Shown here piece after piece: positions 19,503 to 24,654 of a stretch of 40,604 bases of DNA; the stretch's first letter is position 1; every line of letters begins with the position of its first letter. Under the pieces are notes generated by a model. The model made no database searches. It was given only the letters and a program-made list of their open reading frames with translations, and was not told the DNA's origin. Position numbers and translations under genes: made by a program. This stretch comes from a virus (Duplodnaviria > Heunggongvirae > Uroviricota > Caudoviricetes): positions 1-40,604 of IMG/VR virus record IMGVR_UViG_2778261089_000001. The stretch is one strand, 5' to 3'.

Positions 19503-20009
19503 TTACTGTCCTAAAGCACTTTTTGCCAATATTGAAGCAATTGAAGCAAACGTCGGATTTTCCAATAGCTTTTGCCAAAGGCTTTTAACCTCTGGATCAT
19601 TGCAATGCTCTATAGCATCATGTAGTTGTTGAATGGTTATATTCTTTGTGATCGAATTATCATTACCGGCTTGAAAATCACCACCAGCATTAATAGCACC
19701 GTTAAACGTCAAATGGGTCGTAATCTGCTTCGGCTTCTCTTTTACATCCAATGCCTTCACTATCAATACCGCCAAATGTGAGTAGCCAGGGCAACCAACC
19801 TCGAGACTAATTTGCACCTCGTAATCAAGCACTTCAAATAGCCTTTCCCTGTCGACCATTTTTTGCACAATGATATCGCCGATATTAAATGGGCATAAGT
19901 CACTTTCAATAGGAATATACAATCGGCCTTTAGATGAGTCACGTTGACCATAATAGGTGGATGAATTAAAGGTAAAAGTATCTGGATAGAAAAATTGATC
20001 TGGTCTCAT
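19503..20009 (-). CDS. Hypothetical protein, AT-rich moron between lysis cassette and HNH/terminase
   Basis: 168-aa ORF in low-GC DNA with ~200 bp AT-rich upstream region; no recognisable family. Confidence 0.5.
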   Translation of the reverse strand: MRPDQFFYPDTFTFNSSTYYGQRDSSKGRLYIPIESDLCPFNIGDIIVQKMVDRERLFEVLDYEVQISLEVGCPGYSHLAVLIVKALDVKEKPKQITTHLTFNGAINAGGDFQAGNDNSITKNITIQQLHDAIEHCNDPEVKSLWQKLLENPTFASIASILAKSALGQ

Positions 20010-20213
20010 AATAATCCCTTTTGTGTTTTGTGGATATCTCCATTAATTAGACTATTACTTTATCTCTTTTCCCAAATACATACATTCAAAATTAAGAGCA
20101 TTATCACAGATAATTTCGAAGCGATATTGCAATGCCTACCCATGACCTGTATTCAACGAATACGTATCAGAGGAATACCTTGTTCGTTATCTACATGACG
20201 ATAAAAATATACA

Positions 20214-20462
20214 TCAATTTTGATTATCAATGATTCTGATATCTGACTTATCCCTATTACATTGAGCCAACGCGGATAACAAACTTACATTCAAATCAAG
20301 ACTTGCACCATACGTCAGTGGGTTGGGTATAAACGGTACAGGTGTATCAGAAGTCAAGCTGACTGGTAGTGGAGTCTTCGGAATGCTCACGTAAACTGTT
20401 CGCGTACTTCCGCAACCGGTCAGCAGCGGCAGCAGGCACAGGGCGTACAGCACAATCATCAT
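20214..20462 (-). CDS. Rz1-like o-spanin lipoprotein (embedded in Rz in +1 frame)
   Basis: Signal peptide plus lipobox LLTGC, proline-rich mature part. Confidence 0.7.
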   Translation of the reverse strand: MMIVLYALCLLPLLTGCGSTRTVYVSIPKTPLPVSLTSDTPVPFIPNPLTYGASLDLNVSLLSALAQCNRDKSDIRIIDNQN

Positions 20463-20739
20463 CCGCAACAGCCACTTTGATATCAGCCTGGGTTCTCTGT
20501 GACTCCAGTGCGATCTGCTGTTTTGCATGCTGGTTAGCCTCCAGAACTGTATTGACGATTTGCAGTGATTGCAGGACGTTATTGGTAATAGCGGTTGCCG
20601 ATTCGGCATTTTGTACAGCCTCATCAGCACGTTTCTTTTCGCGCTGGTATTTGCTGTGGTAGTGGTTAGCTGACCAGACGAGAGAACCGAATAAAGTCAG
20701 GAGGAAAGCAGAAATAACCAGCTTATAGCGAAGTTTCAT
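20347..20739 (-). CDS. Rz-like i-spanin
   Basis: N-terminal TM helix then coiled-coil; follows R endolysin; start taken at internal Met MKLRYK. Confidence 0.75.
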   Translation of the reverse strand: MKLRYKLVISAFLLTLFGSLVWSANHYHSKYQREKKRADEAVQNAESATAITNNVLQSLQIVNTVLEANQHAKQQIALESQRTQADIKVAVADDDCAVRPVPAAAADRLRKYANSLREHSEDSTTSQLDF

Positions 20740-21199
20740 TAACCACCCCGCCAGCTTCTTTGAATTTGGCAATCAGACTATCGATCTTGTGTTCATACTG
20801 ACCGTAGCCAGCACCGGGCAATGAAGCCCAAATATTGCTGCAACGGTCGATTGCCTGACGAATATTGCCACGGTCAATCATCGGTAAAGCGCCACGCTCT
20901 TTAATCTGCTGCAGAGCTACAGCGTCCTGGCTTTCTGGAGAAAAATCTTTCAGGCCAAGCTGTTTACGGTAAGCATCCCACCAGCGTGAAAGAAGCTGGT
21001 AACGTCCGGCGGCTGTTGATTTGAGTTTGGGGTTTAGCGTGACAAGTTTGCGAGGGTGATCGGAGTAATCAGTGAACAGTTCACCACCAACAATAACATC
21101 ATAACCGTGGTTACGTGTCGGTTGTCGCCCGTTATCCGTTCCTTCTGACCATGCCACCATATCGAGGAAAGCTTTACGCTGGGAATTTAGTACCTGCAT
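20723..21199 (-). CDS. R: Endolysin, lambda R-like lytic transglycosylase
   Basis: Near-identical to lambda R (…QRKAFLDM.AWSEGTDNGRQ.TRNHGYDVIVGGELFTDYSDHPRKL…). Confidence 0.9.
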   Translation of the reverse strand: MQVLNSQRKAFLDMVAWSEGTDNGRQPTRNHGYDVIVGGELFTDYSDHPRKLVTLNPKLKSTAAGRYQLLSRWWDAYRKQLGLKDFSPESQDAVALQQIKERGALPMIDRGNIRQAIDRCSNIWASLPGAGYGQYEHKIDSLIAKFKEAGGVVNETSL

Positions 21200-21202
21200 A
21201 AA

Positions 21203-21529
21203 TTACTCCTTAGAGCCACCAAACTTATTACCGATTACTCTCATTGCAGCCCCACGAATAGCATCGACACCGATCAGCCCCACCCCACCACCAATGGCAA
21301 CAGAAAGCGATTTAGGCCATCCGACATACTCAAGAGCGGATGCAAAAGTCAGCGTCAGAGCGCCACAGAGTAGAATTTCGAGTGTTTTTCGCTTCCAGCC
21401 ACCACCACCGCCAAAATAGGCAATGCGCAAGCCAGCCATAACGATCGACATAATCACTGCGCCCAGTGGTGTGTCTCCACGCCACCAGCTCTGGACCAAC
21501 TCCAGCCAGGTATTTGGGTTATGAGGCAT
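21203..21529 (-). CDS. Holin (lambda S-like class I)
   Basis: 108 aa with hydrophobic helices, immediately upstream of endolysin. Confidence 0.65.
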   Translation of the reverse strand: MPHNPNTWLELVQSWWRGDTPLGAVIMSIVMAGLRIAYFGGGGGWKRKTLEILLCGALTLTFASALEYVGWPKSLSVAIGGGVGLIGVDAIRGAAMRVIGNKFGGSKE

Positions 21530-21670
21530 TTGTAGTTATCTCTCACCTCGCCGATACAGGAGGTGCAAATTGAGGGAGTACCACGAACCGCAAACCAGAA
21601 GCGGAAACGTAAAAGAAGCCGAGCCAATGGATAAGTACTAGATAGACCAAGCCCAACGAATACCAAGGCC

Positions 21671-21700
21671 CAGAAATGACAAAACCCGCTCGACGGCGGG
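21671..21700 (-). terminator. Rho-independent terminator on minus strand (candidate late-operon tR')
   Basis: Minus strand CCCGCC-GTCGA-GCGGG followed by TTTTGTCATTT, ~140 bp upstream of holin. Confidence 0.5.
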
Positions 21701-21860
21701 TTTAAGCTGTGTGGCAAAGTAACCACTCTTAACACGATATAATACTTTTTGCGTACGCGTTAACTTTTTCTGTAGTATTTAGTGTAAGATTCTTCACAAG
21801 ATAGATACTTTGGAGTACATGATGTAAAGTGCTGTATGCATAAACAGTACAAAGGATATC

Positions 21861-22382
21861 ATGATGAACAAATTAGCACGCTTATTATTAACAGCCAGCT
21901 CAATTGCACCTGTTTGCGCAACTCTATTTTTTATTGGATATGTAAAAGATACGGTTTGGCTGATGCAATATAGCTTATGCGTTGGCATAGCAAGTTGGTT
22001 ATTAGCAATAGGCCTGATTCAATATGCTGAGAAACAACTTGAACCTCTGACAAAAAATATTAGTTCAGTTTCTCCCGCTAACAAAGAAGTAACTAATTAT
22101 TTCTTAAGCTATTTATTCCCTCTCCTAGGAACAGATTCTATTGCTGAAAATAAAGCATATGCGTTATTCTTTTATTTATCATTGTTATTTTACATCAGCT
22201 TTTCCGAGAACTATAACTTTAACCCAGTATTGTCACTTATCGGTTATAAATTTTACGAAGCTGAAGATGACACCGGCGTAGGTTTTGTATTGATTTCTAA
22301 ATCAGTTATTACTGATATTAAAGATATCAAATTTACAGTTATTCAATTAACAGACTACACATTTCTACATGTTAAAGGATAA
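21861..22382 (+). CDS. Four-TM membrane protein (candidate KwaA-like component)
   Basis: 173 aa with four hydrophobic helices; AAAGGA RBS; AT-rich; opposite strand to flanking phage genes. Confidence 0.6.
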   Translation: MMNKLARLLLTASSIAPVCATLFFIGYVKDTVWLMQYSLCVGIASWLLAIGLIQYAEKQLEPLTKNISSVSPANKEVTNYFLSYLFPLLGTDSIAENKAYALFFYLSLLFYISFSENYNFNPVLSLIGYKFYEAEDDTGVGFVLISKSVITDIKDIKFTVIQLTDYTFLHVKG

Positions 22383-22387
22383 TAACC

Positions 22388-23272
22388 ATGGCACTTTTTG
22401 CAGTAATAGATAATACAATTGCAACGAGAATTGTTAGAGTCGAACTTGATGCAACAGCAAGTACTTCTGTTACGGCCATTTTCCAACAACAGCGTCAATA
22501 TTTTGAAAGTCATCATAACAATATGATACCATTCTATGCCGGTTATACACCAAAACATAGTGAGTGTTTTGAAATACAAAACTTTACTGATTCTGCACGC
22601 CTGATTGACGCAGTCAATAGGCCTACCGCCGTGCCTATCTGGGATCCTAGCCAAATTGATATTGGTTATATTAAAGCATTATTTGTTGGTGTTGACGCGC
22701 CAGCAAACCCCAATATTATTGCACTACAAACTTTCAACAAAAAACAAATCTTAGATACCTCAAAATCATTCTTTGGAAAGCTTTTTGCAAGCAAAACTAC
22801 CTTTAGTAAAGCTAATAGCATCGGTTTTAATGTTGATGATAAACTAGTTGCAATAATTATCAATGATACAATACGATTTAAGAGTTTCTTTAATCTAAGA
22901 AGCATTTTTGACATGTCGTCCTATTTTTCTGCTGCTACTGACCAAGAACTTAATGCATTTAGTCAACTTAGTGTATTTTCTACTCCCCAAGGTTTTGATC
23001 TAAAATCCGTTGCAGATACAGTGATAAGAAATAAAGTAACACTAATAAATCAGACTGGGATGCTAACACCCCAAAATATGTCAAAGTTTAAATCCGAAGC
23101 TGCTAAAGTTAATTTCCCCTTACAAACCATAATAGTTGGCGGTGTTGAGAAAATTGTCATGCCTTCATCAAAAAAAGAAATAAAAGCCCTTCTTGACTTT
23201 CTTGAGGAAGACATTTGGGTTTCTGGAATAAGTGGAAGACGCTTTAAATCGAATTCAAAGCGCCCAATATAA
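22388..23272 (+). CDS. Soluble 294-aa protein co-transcribed with the TM protein (candidate KwaB/DUF4868-like)
   Basis: Starts 5 bp after upstream stop with AAAGGA RBS; AT-rich; no recognised catalytic motif. Confidence 0.6.
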   Translation: MALFAVIDNTIATRIVRVELDATASTSVTAIFQQQRQYFESHHNNMIPFYAGYTPKHSECFEIQNFTDSARLIDAVNRPTAVPIWDPSQIDIGYIKALFVGVDAPANPNIIALQTFNKKQILDTSKSFFGKLFASKTTFSKANSIGFNVDDKLVAIIINDTIRFKSFFNLRSIFDMSSYFSAATDQELNAFSQLSVFSTPQGFDLKSVADTVIRNKVTLINQTGMLTPQNMSKFKSEAAKVNFPLQTIIVGGVEKIVMPSSKKEIKALLDFLEEDIWVSGISGRRFKSNSKRPI

Positions 23273-23293
23273 CTAGAAGACAGTTAAGAATAG

Positions 23294-23656
23294 TTAACAG
23301 GCAAGAGTGCAAACAATGCCTTCAATGAAACCAAGCGATGTTTGCAACTCTTTCCTGATAGTCCCATCCGAACACTTTCTCTTCTTAGCAATGGCTCGCA
23401 ATGAAATCCCTACCACAAAATGGGCTATAACTAACTCATACTCTTCTGGTTTGTACTTTCTTAATCTAGCTACGCACCCATCGATCATGAGCCCCTCATC
23501 ATCATCACACTGAATCCGGGACTTTTTGCCATGAGGTAAAAGCCCCTTGAAGCCAGCGGCTACCGGTTGCCAGTCCACTCCGCTATTGTCTGAAGCAGCC
23601 CAAGCTCCCCAACGATCCATCACTTCATACATATCACGCATCAACTTTCTCCACAA
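23294..23656 (-). CDS. Q: Late-gene antiterminator Q
   Basis: 120 aa; Q-family character and position at end of early-right operon. Confidence 0.7.
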   Translation of the reverse strand: MWRKLMRDMYEVMDRWGAWAASDNSGVDWQPVAAGFKGLLPHGKKSRIQCDDDEGLMIDGCVARLRKYKPEEYELVIAHFVVGISLRAIAKKRKCSDGTIRKELQTSLGFIEGIVCTLAC

Positions 23657-23658
23657 AA

Positions 23659-24654
23659 TCAGGCCAGTACGCCAATTGCCAGCGCACGATCGATAAAACG
23701 AAATATCAGCTCCAGCTGAGAGCCATACTTCTCTTCAAATGCCACGGTATCCGCATGCAGCTCGTCGTGATGCTTTCTGCACAAAGGCAACACAAAGAGG
23801 TCATGCGCTTTTGTACCCATTCCACCCTGACCGTGGCCTATCAGATGGTGGGGATCATCAGCAGGCTTTCCACAACATGCACACGGCTGTGTCTTAACCC
23901 AGCGCGTGTACTTTTCATTAACCCAGCGGCGGCTTTTTGGGCGTAACATAAAAGACTCCGGCGACTCCGGATCCACTTTCAGCGCCAGCACCTTTTTCGC
24001 TTTATCCTGGATGATGCTGGTGGCAGGAACCGAAGGCACAAGGTCACTTTCCCGGGTGACAGACGGCACAACAGGCTTCGGTAATCTCAGTGCCTTACGG
24101 GCTGCACTTTCCGGTAAGGCATCCGCCAGGTCATTACGAACCAGCCACCAGCACAGTTCCGGCATTGTCACAACGTGACTATCATCAAAACCGAGATCCC
24201 GACGCACAACAGACAATACCCAGCGGGCACAGTTATCCGTTGCCATTGATTCCAGCCGTTCCGTGAACTGATCGCGCAACTGGTTATCGCAGTGCCAGCA
24301 CAGACGGATTGCGCCCGGCGCGTGCCGCATTGTGGTCATGTTCTCGCTGTGCCAGTCGGAATGAGGCCACTGACAGCCCTTTTCACGAAGTAACCAGCTT
24401 TCAAGACATTCCACGCCACCAGCACGACGGATCACTGCCTCATTGCGGAACACGCCCCGAACGGCAGGATCATCCGCCAGCGGTTGTGATACCGCCGGAA
24501 CGGCACCACTGGCAAAAGATGAATAACGTTCCGGCTCAGGCTCCAGCAGGACACGCCCCTGCATAAACAGGGGCATCAGCTCTGAACCTGGCCTGAACAA
24601 TACGATCCCCATACGCGGGGCAATTTCAGGAGTCAGTAGTGCTCTCACGGTCAC
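23659..24654 (-). CDS. DUF968-like phage protein with C-terminal HNH-type Cys/His motif
   Basis: 331 aa; C-terminus CACCGKP...HHLIGHG...CRKHHDELH. Confidence 0.45.
   Translation of the reverse strand: MTVRALLTPEIAPRMGIVLFRPGSELMPLFMQGRVLLEPEPERYSSFASGAVPAVSQPLADDPAVRGVFRNEAVIRRAGGVECLESWLLREKGCQWPHSDWHSENMTTMRHAPGAIRLCWHCDNQLRDQFTERLESMATDNCARWVLSVVRRDLGFDDSHVVTMPELCWWLVRNDLADALPESAARKALRLPKPVVPSVTRESDLVPSVPATSIIQDKAKKVLALKVDPESPESFMLRPKSRRWVNEKYTRWVKTQPCACCGKPADDPHHLIGHGQGGMGTKAHDLFVLPLCRKHHDELHADTVAFEEKYGSQLELIFRFIDRALAIGVLA

Follow-up and report, generated by a model that had tools for sequence, protein, structure and literature searches.

How can a late antiterminator govern lysis when its gene and its target are parted by foreign cargo? 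The question is raised by a 40,604-nt stretch of tailed-phage DNA (Caudoviricetes; IMG/VR record IMGVR_UViG_2778261089_000001), hereafter the window, in which the minus strand is the direction of phage lytic transcription and two opposite-strand genes lie between the gene for the antiterminator Q and the holin gene. The initial annotation had described Q as split from a candidate tR' terminator, a minus-strand hairpin at 21671-21700 near the holin, by ~1.6 kb of cargo that it called a moron, and had left two alternatives: either the late promoter pR' and the Q-loading site lie in 21700-21860, or late transcription runs antisense through the cargo and couples it to the lytic switch. The separation is as described, with two plus-strand open reading frames (ORFs) and 1,591 nt between the Q stop and the hairpin, which we find at 21703-21682 with a T-run to 21672, the holin starting at 21529. 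By its gene content the cargo is a Kiwa anti-phage defence system. We consider it likely that the late switch is a normal Q-dependent one whose two halves are separated by a cargo slot, here occupied by Kiwa, and that the target of Q is a pR' starting at A21727, followed by the hairpin and the late genes.

The late promoter module

The evidence comes mainly from a ~100-nt module beyond the cassette (21775-21672), which is ~90% identical to the corresponding sequences of the Shigella phages SfII and SfIV, and parts of which match hundreds of lambdoid and Stx phages. We collected 45 distinct variants of this module from 80 IMG/VR loci and from GenBank phages. It follows different opposite-strand cargo in SfII, SfIV, Stx2a_1447, Stx1_132418, Klebsiella P7641 and PA-2, as well as in IMG/VR loci encoding the Q type of the window, and the genes downstream of it also differ (a holin leader, a small ORF with a methylase, tRNAs with stx2, or stx1A), which argues that the module travels with Q and not with its neighbours. 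An alignment of eight phages contains an invariant TAnnnT (TATCGT in the window) and, after five bases, an invariant TAAGAGTGGT. Across the 45 variants the hexamer retains its T, A and final T at 90% or more each, with variation at the middle three positions, a pattern that, as judged from sequence, is the signature of a working -10 element. Two other -10 candidates chosen by eye, TATTAT (21744-21739) and TATATC (21741-21736), were dropped because the eight-phage alignment puts the invariant hexamer 3-5 bases downstream. In phages 933W and SC370 the homologous block adjoins the Q stop and is annotated as a putative pR' (and tR').

The start site can be transferred from homologues in which it has been mapped. 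The invariant TAAGAGTGGT occurs once in the window (0.08 occurrences expected). In the DLP12 prophage of Escherichia coli K-12, which carries the motif TAAG[A]GTGG (start in brackets) between nmpC and essD, Cappable-seq gave a plus-strand start at U00096.2 576452 (Ettwiller et al., 2016); with the 777-nt offset that the essD coordinates give, this is the A of the motif, 7 nt after the -10. In the Stx phages of strain Sakai, the PR' start and a Term-seq 3' end are 258 nt apart (Sy et al., 2020). When the start in Sakai Sp5 is set at the same A, the 3' end at +258 falls on the last T of the T-run of a canonical terminator, and the 258-nt distance fits only with a start inside the motif. From these starts mapped in homologous modules, we infer for the window a pR' of the form TTAACG-18 bp-TATCGT with its start at A21727. 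A predicted sigma-70 pR' upstream of the lysis genes can thus be recognized, by homology only.

Several observations weigh against this placement. All the evidence for the start site is drawn from homologous modules that belong to two other Q subtypes, and the DLP12 signal is weak (score 1.7), the calling cut-off of the method being reportedly about 1.5. With only 8 of 12 positions agreeing with the sigma-70 consensus and a spacer of 18 bp, the predicted pR' falls below the threshold of our consensus scan; the scan missed both pR' and the cargo promoter discussed below, each of which matches the consensus at 7-8 of 12 positions. A different study of K-12 gives just a weak essD start right after the hairpin and not the predicted one (Kim et al., 2012). 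Finally, inspection of the module yielded no confident assignment of either a Q-binding element or a sigma-dependent pause element.

Candidates for both elements do exist. Upstream of the start, AACGCGTACGCAA is invariant in the Q lineage of the window, and it is replaced by TTTACGATCGTAAA in modules of the 933W type and by TTTACGTACGTAAA in those of the DLP12 type; this replacement by Q type fits Q specificity, but the same bases also form two -35 hexamers. As for the pause element, which in lambda reads AACGATGGG, the candidates are an invariant AAGAGT followed by GG at -3 to +3 and a TACTTT at +7 to +12 (TACTTC in most variants); neither is a clear match, and the former is a possible pause element.

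Two kinds of unusual module were seen among the surveyed loci. At L049, L051, L053, L054, L059, L064 and L075 (e.g. 8833-8847 of L054), GTTAAGTGTGCTCAC stands in place of GTTAAGAGTGGTTAC, which alters the otherwise invariant AAGAGTGG and leaves the remainder of the module intact; these loci could inform the pause or start-site requirement. Other modules are chimeric (L026 and L028, as compared with L003 and L089), with a promoter-proximal half that follows the Q type (CTAACGCGTACGCAA) and a leader/terminator half of the DLP12 type (TTCGTCACAC...TTTTTCCATTTTTTG). Such chimeras indicate recombination inside the invariant core, and fit a Q specificity lying upstream of +1.

The Q gene is a recognized member of the PF06530 family encoded at the end of the early-right operon, with its stop codon TAA at 23296-23294. 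For its start we favour the ATG at 23641, which is annotated by PGAP and spaced from a GGAG, over the TTG at 23656 given by mechanical ORF calling. The protein is 45% identical to 933W-type Q and 82-90% identical to the Q of Stx2a_1447, Stx1_132418 and Klebsiella P7641, and matches distantly the solved phage 21 Q chains (PDB 6P18/6JNX; E 6e-4). Its last 6-14 residues and everything downstream vary by cargo class. In the window only 21 bp lie between the kwaB stop (23272) and the Q stop (23294), and neither this gap nor the 3' end of kwaB holds an element conserved with other members of the Q lineage. We could not find any conserved promoter downstream of Q, where the sequence is specific to each cargo class.

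The candidate terminator and the course of late transcription

The hairpin, AAACCCGC-CGTCGA-GCGGGTTT followed by TGTCATTTCT, is the sole terminator-like site that our terminator scan recovered between pR' and the holin. Its 8-bp stem has a folding energy of -12 kcal/mol alone, and the fold of the leader reaches -19.6 kcal/mol (z -2.96). Hairpin and U-run are present in nearly all of the 45 variants, with a variable loop, and the stem is paired in 89.8% of alignment cells, as against 17-53% in controls with the 3' partner displaced by 1-3 columns. The terminator-like sites counted by consensus scan (5, versus 2.1 +/- 1.5 expected by chance) are not significant alone; it is the conservation of the hairpin and its 5' sequence as one module, in 45 variants beside differing cargo and downstream genes, that makes them clearly non-random.

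There are also arguments against a terminator function. The stem is conserved with almost no covariation, just two compensatory cells being found in the covariation test, the U-run of the window is interrupted (UUUUGUCAUUU), and the scan found no second terminator-like site between it and the holin. In Sakai Sp5/Sp15, where the U-run of the hairpin homologue is uninterrupted, the 258-nt precursor transcripts of StxS pass this homologue to a second terminator, and the authors place tR' at +258 (Sy et al., 2020). We therefore regard the hairpin as the best tR' candidate, with a predicted transcript of ~50 nt and an unproven efficiency. StxS, an Hfq-binding RNA of 74 nt, is released by cleavage from the 3' portion of the 258-nt PR'-tR' transcript (Sy et al., 2020). 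The part producing it is absent from the window, where homology is limited to about the first 50 nt of the leader and the sequence differs from the hairpin onward.

The untranslated leader between hairpin and holin (21530-21671) is ~90% identical to those of SfII and SfIV and ~73% to those of PA-2 and lambda-like phages; its fold is not unusual (z -1.0). At the other end, a 1980s record of PA-2 (L003, GenBank J02580) annotates a CRP/CAP site at 1531-1551, on an invariant leader sequence, GTGGTTACTTCGTCACAC, that corresponds to 21726-21709 of the window. This sequence is palindrome-like and forms a small 5' hairpin in the predicted leader RNA, whose pairing is broken in some variants. We claim no function for the leader hairpin GUGGU...GCCAC (+2 to +17), which is broken in the GTTAAGTGTGCTCAC variant and lacks covariation. 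A search of Rfam gave nothing above threshold in the region; a weak match to the Pseudomonas small RNA P9 (RF00624; 18.4 bits, E 0.8, gathering score 43), covering the pR' start, leader and hairpin (21681-21749, minus strand), probably reflects terminator shape alone.

Two other accounts of the late switch have to be weighed. The late promoter could coincide with or directly follow the 3' end of Q, as it does in 933W, so that Q-modified transcripts would run antisense through kwaB and kwaA and silence the cassette. The -35 of 933W pR' indeed overlaps the last Q codons, but the block homologous to this promoter is found in the window at 21763-21672, beyond the cassette, and the 21-bp gap and the kwaB 3' end, where a promoter of this kind would be sought, are devoid of conserved elements, with post-Q sequence differing in each cargo class. 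No canonical terminator between Q and kwaB would stop such transcripts, and the AT-rich antisense DNA does contain promoter-like hexamers such as TTGATA-16-TATCAT (22863-22836); yet their number in the cassette (6) shows no excess over shuffled sequence (7.0 +/- 2.8). We consider this account highly improbable. The other one accepts the placement of pR' but denies the hairpin the role of functional tR', taking it instead for a weak or partial stop, a pause or an RNA-stability element, and supposes that the late genes are kept silent by other means, such as an action of Rho on the 150-nt untranslated leader, a weak promoter or the threshold kinetics of the holin. The Sakai homologue is passed by StxS precursors despite its better U-run, SC370 carries two terminators annotated as 'possible', and the interrupted U-run and the stem without covariation point the same way. 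Against this, the hairpin with its U-run is the only one between pR' and the holin and has been retained in nearly all variants despite its variable loop, and the 933W record annotates its homologue as tR'; moreover, RNAs of ~50 nt could easily be lost in the size ranges of Term-seq and northern blots, so that the Sakai data are probably no measure of efficiency. On balance we hold a hairpin without tR' function to be unlikely.

The preferred reading, an ordinary switch with separated halves, would operate as follows. Q would be made as the product of the last gene of the early-right operon, and its target would lie 1.57 kb away, beyond the convergent Kiwa cassette (1,567 nt from the Q stop at 23294 to the predicted start at 21727, containing kwaB and kwaA). 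Since Q acts in trans on a DNA site, the distance from its gene would be irrelevant. In the lysogen, pR' would fire and most transcripts would stop at the hairpin, with Kiwa transcribed in the opposite direction, away from pR'. Upon induction, Q would be made, load onto RNA polymerase at pR' and carry it past the hairpin to transcribe the genes for holin, endolysin, Rz/Rz1, terminase and structural proteins. Because pR' lies beyond the cassette and is directed away from it, late transcription would never cross the cassette. Thus, of the two alternatives in the initial annotation, the placement of pR' in 21700-21860 stands (21763-21727), and any Q-loading site would be there too. Antisense late transcription finds no support, as there is no conserved promoter after Q, the antisense promoter-like sites are at shuffled level and pR' points the other way. 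The coupling of the cassette to the lytic switch by late transcripts falls with it, Q-modified transcription running away from Kiwa.

Features of the late-regulation region and its neighbours in the window (promoter, start-site and terminator functions are predicted)
Feature	Position	Strand	Details
DUF968/HNH-like gene	23659..24654	-	PF06147 E 5.4e-81; PGAP 'DUF968 domain-containing protein' in the identical H1827/12 prophage; directly upstream of Q, last-but-one gene of the early-right operon
Q late antiterminator	23294..23641	-	115 aa from ATG 23641; PF06530 Phage_antitermQ E 1.5e-45
kwaB	22388..23272	+	294 aa, DUF4868 component of Kiwa, convergent with Q; PADLOC PDLC00225
kwaA	21861..22382	+	173 aa, Kiwa membrane component; PADLOC PDLC00216
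Putative divergent cargo (Kiwa) promoter	21749..21778	+	-35 TTGCGT 21749-21754, 18-bp T-rich spacer, -10 TAGTAT 21773-21778
Predicted late promoter pR'	21734..21763	-	-35 TTAACG 21763-21758, 18-bp spacer with invariant CGTACGCAA (candidate Q-binding element), -10 TATCGT 21739-21734
Invariant TAAGAGTGGT with predicted late start A21727	21722..21731	-	homologous mapped starts
Candidate tR'	21672..21703	-	stem AAACCCGC/GCGGGTTT 21703-21682, loop CGTCGA, interrupted U-run to 21672
Untranslated leader, hairpin to holin start	21530..21671	-	ribosome-binding site GAGGTGAGAG
Holin, first late gene	21203..21529	-	PF05106 E 5.7e-25; PGAP 'phage holin, lambda family'
Rest of lysis cassette	20214..21199	-	endolysin 20723-21199, Rz-like 20347-20739, Rz1-like 20214-20462; ORFs and PGAP of the identical prophage: GH104 endolysin, DUF2570, lysC

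The cargo slot and its promoter

The two cargo genes lie on the same strand 5 nt apart and match the Kiwa components of PADLOC over their full length (KwaA, E 1.9e-83; KwaB, E 2.3e-150). The RefSeq annotation of KwaB agrees, and the protein also matches Pfam PF16162 (32.0 bits versus a cut-off of 26.3). For KwaA we used the Kiwa family definition of PMC11785009; simple hydropathy gives two strong and two weaker hydrophobic segments, which does not confirm a count of four. The cassette, called a moron by the initial annotation, is foreign cargo, with a GC content of 0.34 as against 0.49 for the whole window (Q 0.47, holin 0.52), and its low GC relative to the surrounding phage DNA is the foreign composition expected of a moron in the sense of Juhala and Hendrix. 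As for the promoter and terminator that a moron should bring along, the -35 and spacer of the best promoter candidate belong to the conserved module of the phage, and the terminator scan found no intrinsic or canonical terminator after kwaB or between Q and kwaB (gap 23273-23293). Most other cargo classes have a GC-rich hairpin terminator directly after the Q stop, and the Kiwa class has none; with its 21-bp gap, the transcripts of Q and kwaB should therefore overlap head-on. Early transcripts passing Q would meet kwaB head-on, and Kiwa transcripts would run antisense into Q. Transcription across the cassette might thus couple it to the lytic switch via early, not late, transcription. The other conceivable route of coupling would have to be promoter overlap at the module, and not Q-modified late transcription.

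The split between Q and its target is not a peculiarity of this prophage, as the initial annotation had implied. We surveyed 80 IMG/VR loci encoding the Q type of the window at 83% identity or more. Wherever a locus extends far enough downstream, the module is found 1.0-3.8 kb beyond the Q stop and never adjoins it, seven apparent exceptions being the loci with the variant core GTTAAGTGTGCTCAC. The cargo in between belongs to at least 16 unrelated classes (loci L001, L004, L005, L006, L021, L023, L026, L027, L038, L067, L070, L072, L079, L080 and L084), all on the strand opposite to Q and all with a GC content of 0.30-0.39, and the conserved promoter module is always beyond the cargo and points away from it. 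The same gene order occurs with another Q subtype in PA-2 (lc porin) and in K-12 DLP12 (quuD-nmpC-essD), and the module type is present in at least 252 of 5,426 complete E. coli genomes. The order Q, opposite-strand cargo, pR' is thus the rule for this Q lineage, a recurrent, long-standing and orientation-constrained architecture.

Among the contents of the slot we recognized Kiwa (two variants), PDC-M53 (in SfII), a PDC-S60 protein of 1,060 aa, a trio of genes that includes one for an MBL-fold LmuA/RTasMBL-like protein, NA37 nucleoid-protein-like genes and a protein resembling ion channels; about ten further classes have no PADLOC or Pfam match. By these contents the gap between Q and pR' behaves like a defence hotspot, and the unmatched classes are candidate new defence systems. 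We could not find any account of this gap as a defence hotspot in the accessible literature, which is not proof of absence.

How such diverse cargo is expressed is suggested by the edge of the module. A conserved ACGCAA reads TTGCGT on the cargo strand, and in 21 of the 23 distinct junctions, covering 14 of 16 cargo classes, it is followed by TAnnnT, 17 bp away in 17 cases and 18 bp away in 4; no other spacing between 8 and 39 bp yields TAnnnT in more than 3 of the 23. The junction hexamers match TATAAT at 4-6 of 6 positions and are located where conservation ends, so that in the window the -35 and the spacer lie inside the conserved module and the -10 at its junction with the cargo. Many classes have their cargo start codon as close as ~28-46 nt to the module, as calculated from the coordinates, which leaves too little room for an independent promoter. 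The sequence of the cargo-free 933W has no -10-like hexamer at the corresponding position. A divergent cargo promoter appears to straddle the module edge, and Kiwa transcription would be expected to start at ~21784-21786, with a 76-nt leader to kwaA. The predicted pR' and cargo promoters would face away from each other, with ~58 bp between their starts and with their -35 hexamers interdigitated. Because the cargo -35 lies inside the interval between the -35 and -10 of pR', where the Q-binding elements of lambda and phage 21 sit, the layout suggests, but does not show, promoter competition and a Q-dependent damping of the cargo.

Two other features of this stretch were considered and set aside. 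A perfect TATAAT on the plus strand (21738-21743), overlapping the pR' -10, has no -35, is TACAAT in most variants and has two bases forced by the pR' -10; it probably arises from the AT richness and partial palindromy of the -10 region. Upstream of the pR' -35 there is an A-tract that could be taken for an UP element but makes better sense as the T-rich spacer of the divergent cargo promoter.

It could also be that Kiwa is driven only from a promoter within its own cassette (21779-21860), TTGCGT and TAnnnT being a side effect of AT-rich sequence and recombination boundaries. TTGCGT agrees with the -35 consensus at just 3 of 6 positions, the window has the 18-bp spacer, and the 'TA' at the head of the junction hexamer may be part of the conserved block; the portion of the hexamer specific to each class nevertheless retains the final T and brings the score to 4-6 of 6, and the concentration of TAnnnT at 17-18 bp speaks against a side effect. 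The hexamer is missing in two classes (L023, and the junction of L076, which is grouped with the Kiwa cluster). The 86 nt from the module to the kwaA ATG would accommodate another promoter, and nmpC of DLP12 has its own mapped start 45 nt upstream of the gene, but the promoter scan found no plus-strand site reaching 9 of 12 in 21700-21860, and in the many classes with shorter distances a separate promoter with its leader would not fit. An exclusively cassette-internal promoter is a serious possibility, albeit short of an even chance. The shared divergent promoter can be extended to a more ambitious proposal, which we put forward tentatively and regard as doubtful in its full form. The locus would be a dedicated defence slot in which the module gives a TTGCGT -35 and a spacer to any cargo, polymerase occupancy of pR' and, after induction, binding of Q could turn the cargo down during the prophage's lytic growth, and the roughly ten unmatched classes are candidate anti-phage systems.

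As for the setting of the locus, the 2.5-kb stretch around it is 100% identical to prophages of E. coli H1827/12, GF60 and GPEC1035, and of 5,426 complete E. coli genomes, 33 contain it over at least 80% of its length. PGAP annotates in the identical prophage a lambdoid early region (LexA-family repressor, Cro, replication genes, RusA, KilA-N, DUF968 and Q; KilA-N was assigned by Pfam) linked with HK97-type head genes and a contractile tail. Among sequenced phages, SfII and SfIV are the closest. A tRNA search found no tRNAs in the window, and no flanking repeats of the kind suggesting transposition surround the cassette. A 168-aa ORF between the Rz/Rz1 and HNH/terminase genes (19503-20009, minus strand, hence on the same strand as the late genes) has no Pfam or PADLOC match and is associated with a dip in GC content (0.31-0.35 at 19800-20250); it looks like a second piece of cargo.

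Comparison with known systems

The late switch of this prophage appears intact and largely ordinary, and the separation of Q from its target should be without effect, because Q acts in trans on a DNA site. Our analysis places a predicted late promoter and start to the base for a widespread family of E. coli and Shigella prophages, in which annotators should not look for pR' beside Q, and the slot between Q and pR' may be mined for new defence systems by using its two conserved flanks as anchors. The parts most worth pursuing are the hotspot survey and the shared divergent promoter; if the latter is true, the prophage would have a simple means of expressing its defence cargo in the lysogen and of damping it after induction.

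The general logic is that of the lambda Q-pR'-qut-tR' system, with a constitutive late promoter, a short terminated leader (the 6S RNA), an early-right Q that makes polymerase terminator-resistant, and the lysis genes first in line. However, the Q of the window belongs to PF06530 and not to the lambda Q family, the lambda leader is 194 nt long versus a predicted ~50 nt, and pR' adjoins Q in lambda whereas it lies 1.57 kb away in the window, where no qut-like site can be assigned. The Q-binding element of phage 21 is made up of a pair of direct repeats of 6 bp that lie between the -35 and -10 (TGAGCA, in an 8-bp register); the window has candidate adjacent repeats, AACGCG and TACGCA, at -34 to -23 in a 6-bp register. 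The phage 21 Q is a protein of 162 aa, compared with 115 aa.

Much closer are 933W and Sakai Sp5, which have the same Q family and a homologous promoter, start region and first hairpin, with TAAGAGTGGTTAC shared and the TAnnnT -10 in register, and the PR' start has been mapped experimentally in Sakai Sp5. They differ in several respects. The 933W promoter overlaps the end of Q, without cargo, and has a TTTACG -35 and a 16-bp spacer. In 933W and Sakai the functional tR' is the second terminator at +258, and the 74-nt StxS comes from a downstream part that is absent from the window; the module is followed by stx and tRNA genes, in the window by the holin. DLP12 (quuD, nmpC, essD) and PA-2 (Q, lc, S) share the split arrangement, with a PF06530-type Q, opposite-strand cargo, a module with TAAGAGTGGTTAC and the same hairpin, and a holin, and the start site of DLP12 has been mapped in the motif. 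Their cargo, however, is a porin gene whose own promoter lies ~400 nt away from the module, DLP12 has two strong hairpins between quuD and nmpC, and the -35 region of the DLP12 type is the palindrome TTTACGTACGTAAA, that of the window being TTAACGCGTACGCAA.

SfII and SfIV are the nearest relatives, with a module and holin leader ~90% identical, the same overall genome type and two opposite-strand genes between Q and the module. In SfII the cargo is the PDC-M53 candidate defence pair and not Kiwa, and Q is shorter. As a place for defence genes, the locus resembles the slot described in PMC9122126 (2022), a fixed position between two conserved phage genes that holds interchangeable short, low-GC anti-phage cargo. 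That slot belongs to another phage family and another site; the one described here parts a regulator gene from its DNA target, its cargo is always antiparallel, and the cargo promoter is apparently supplied in part by the conserved flank.

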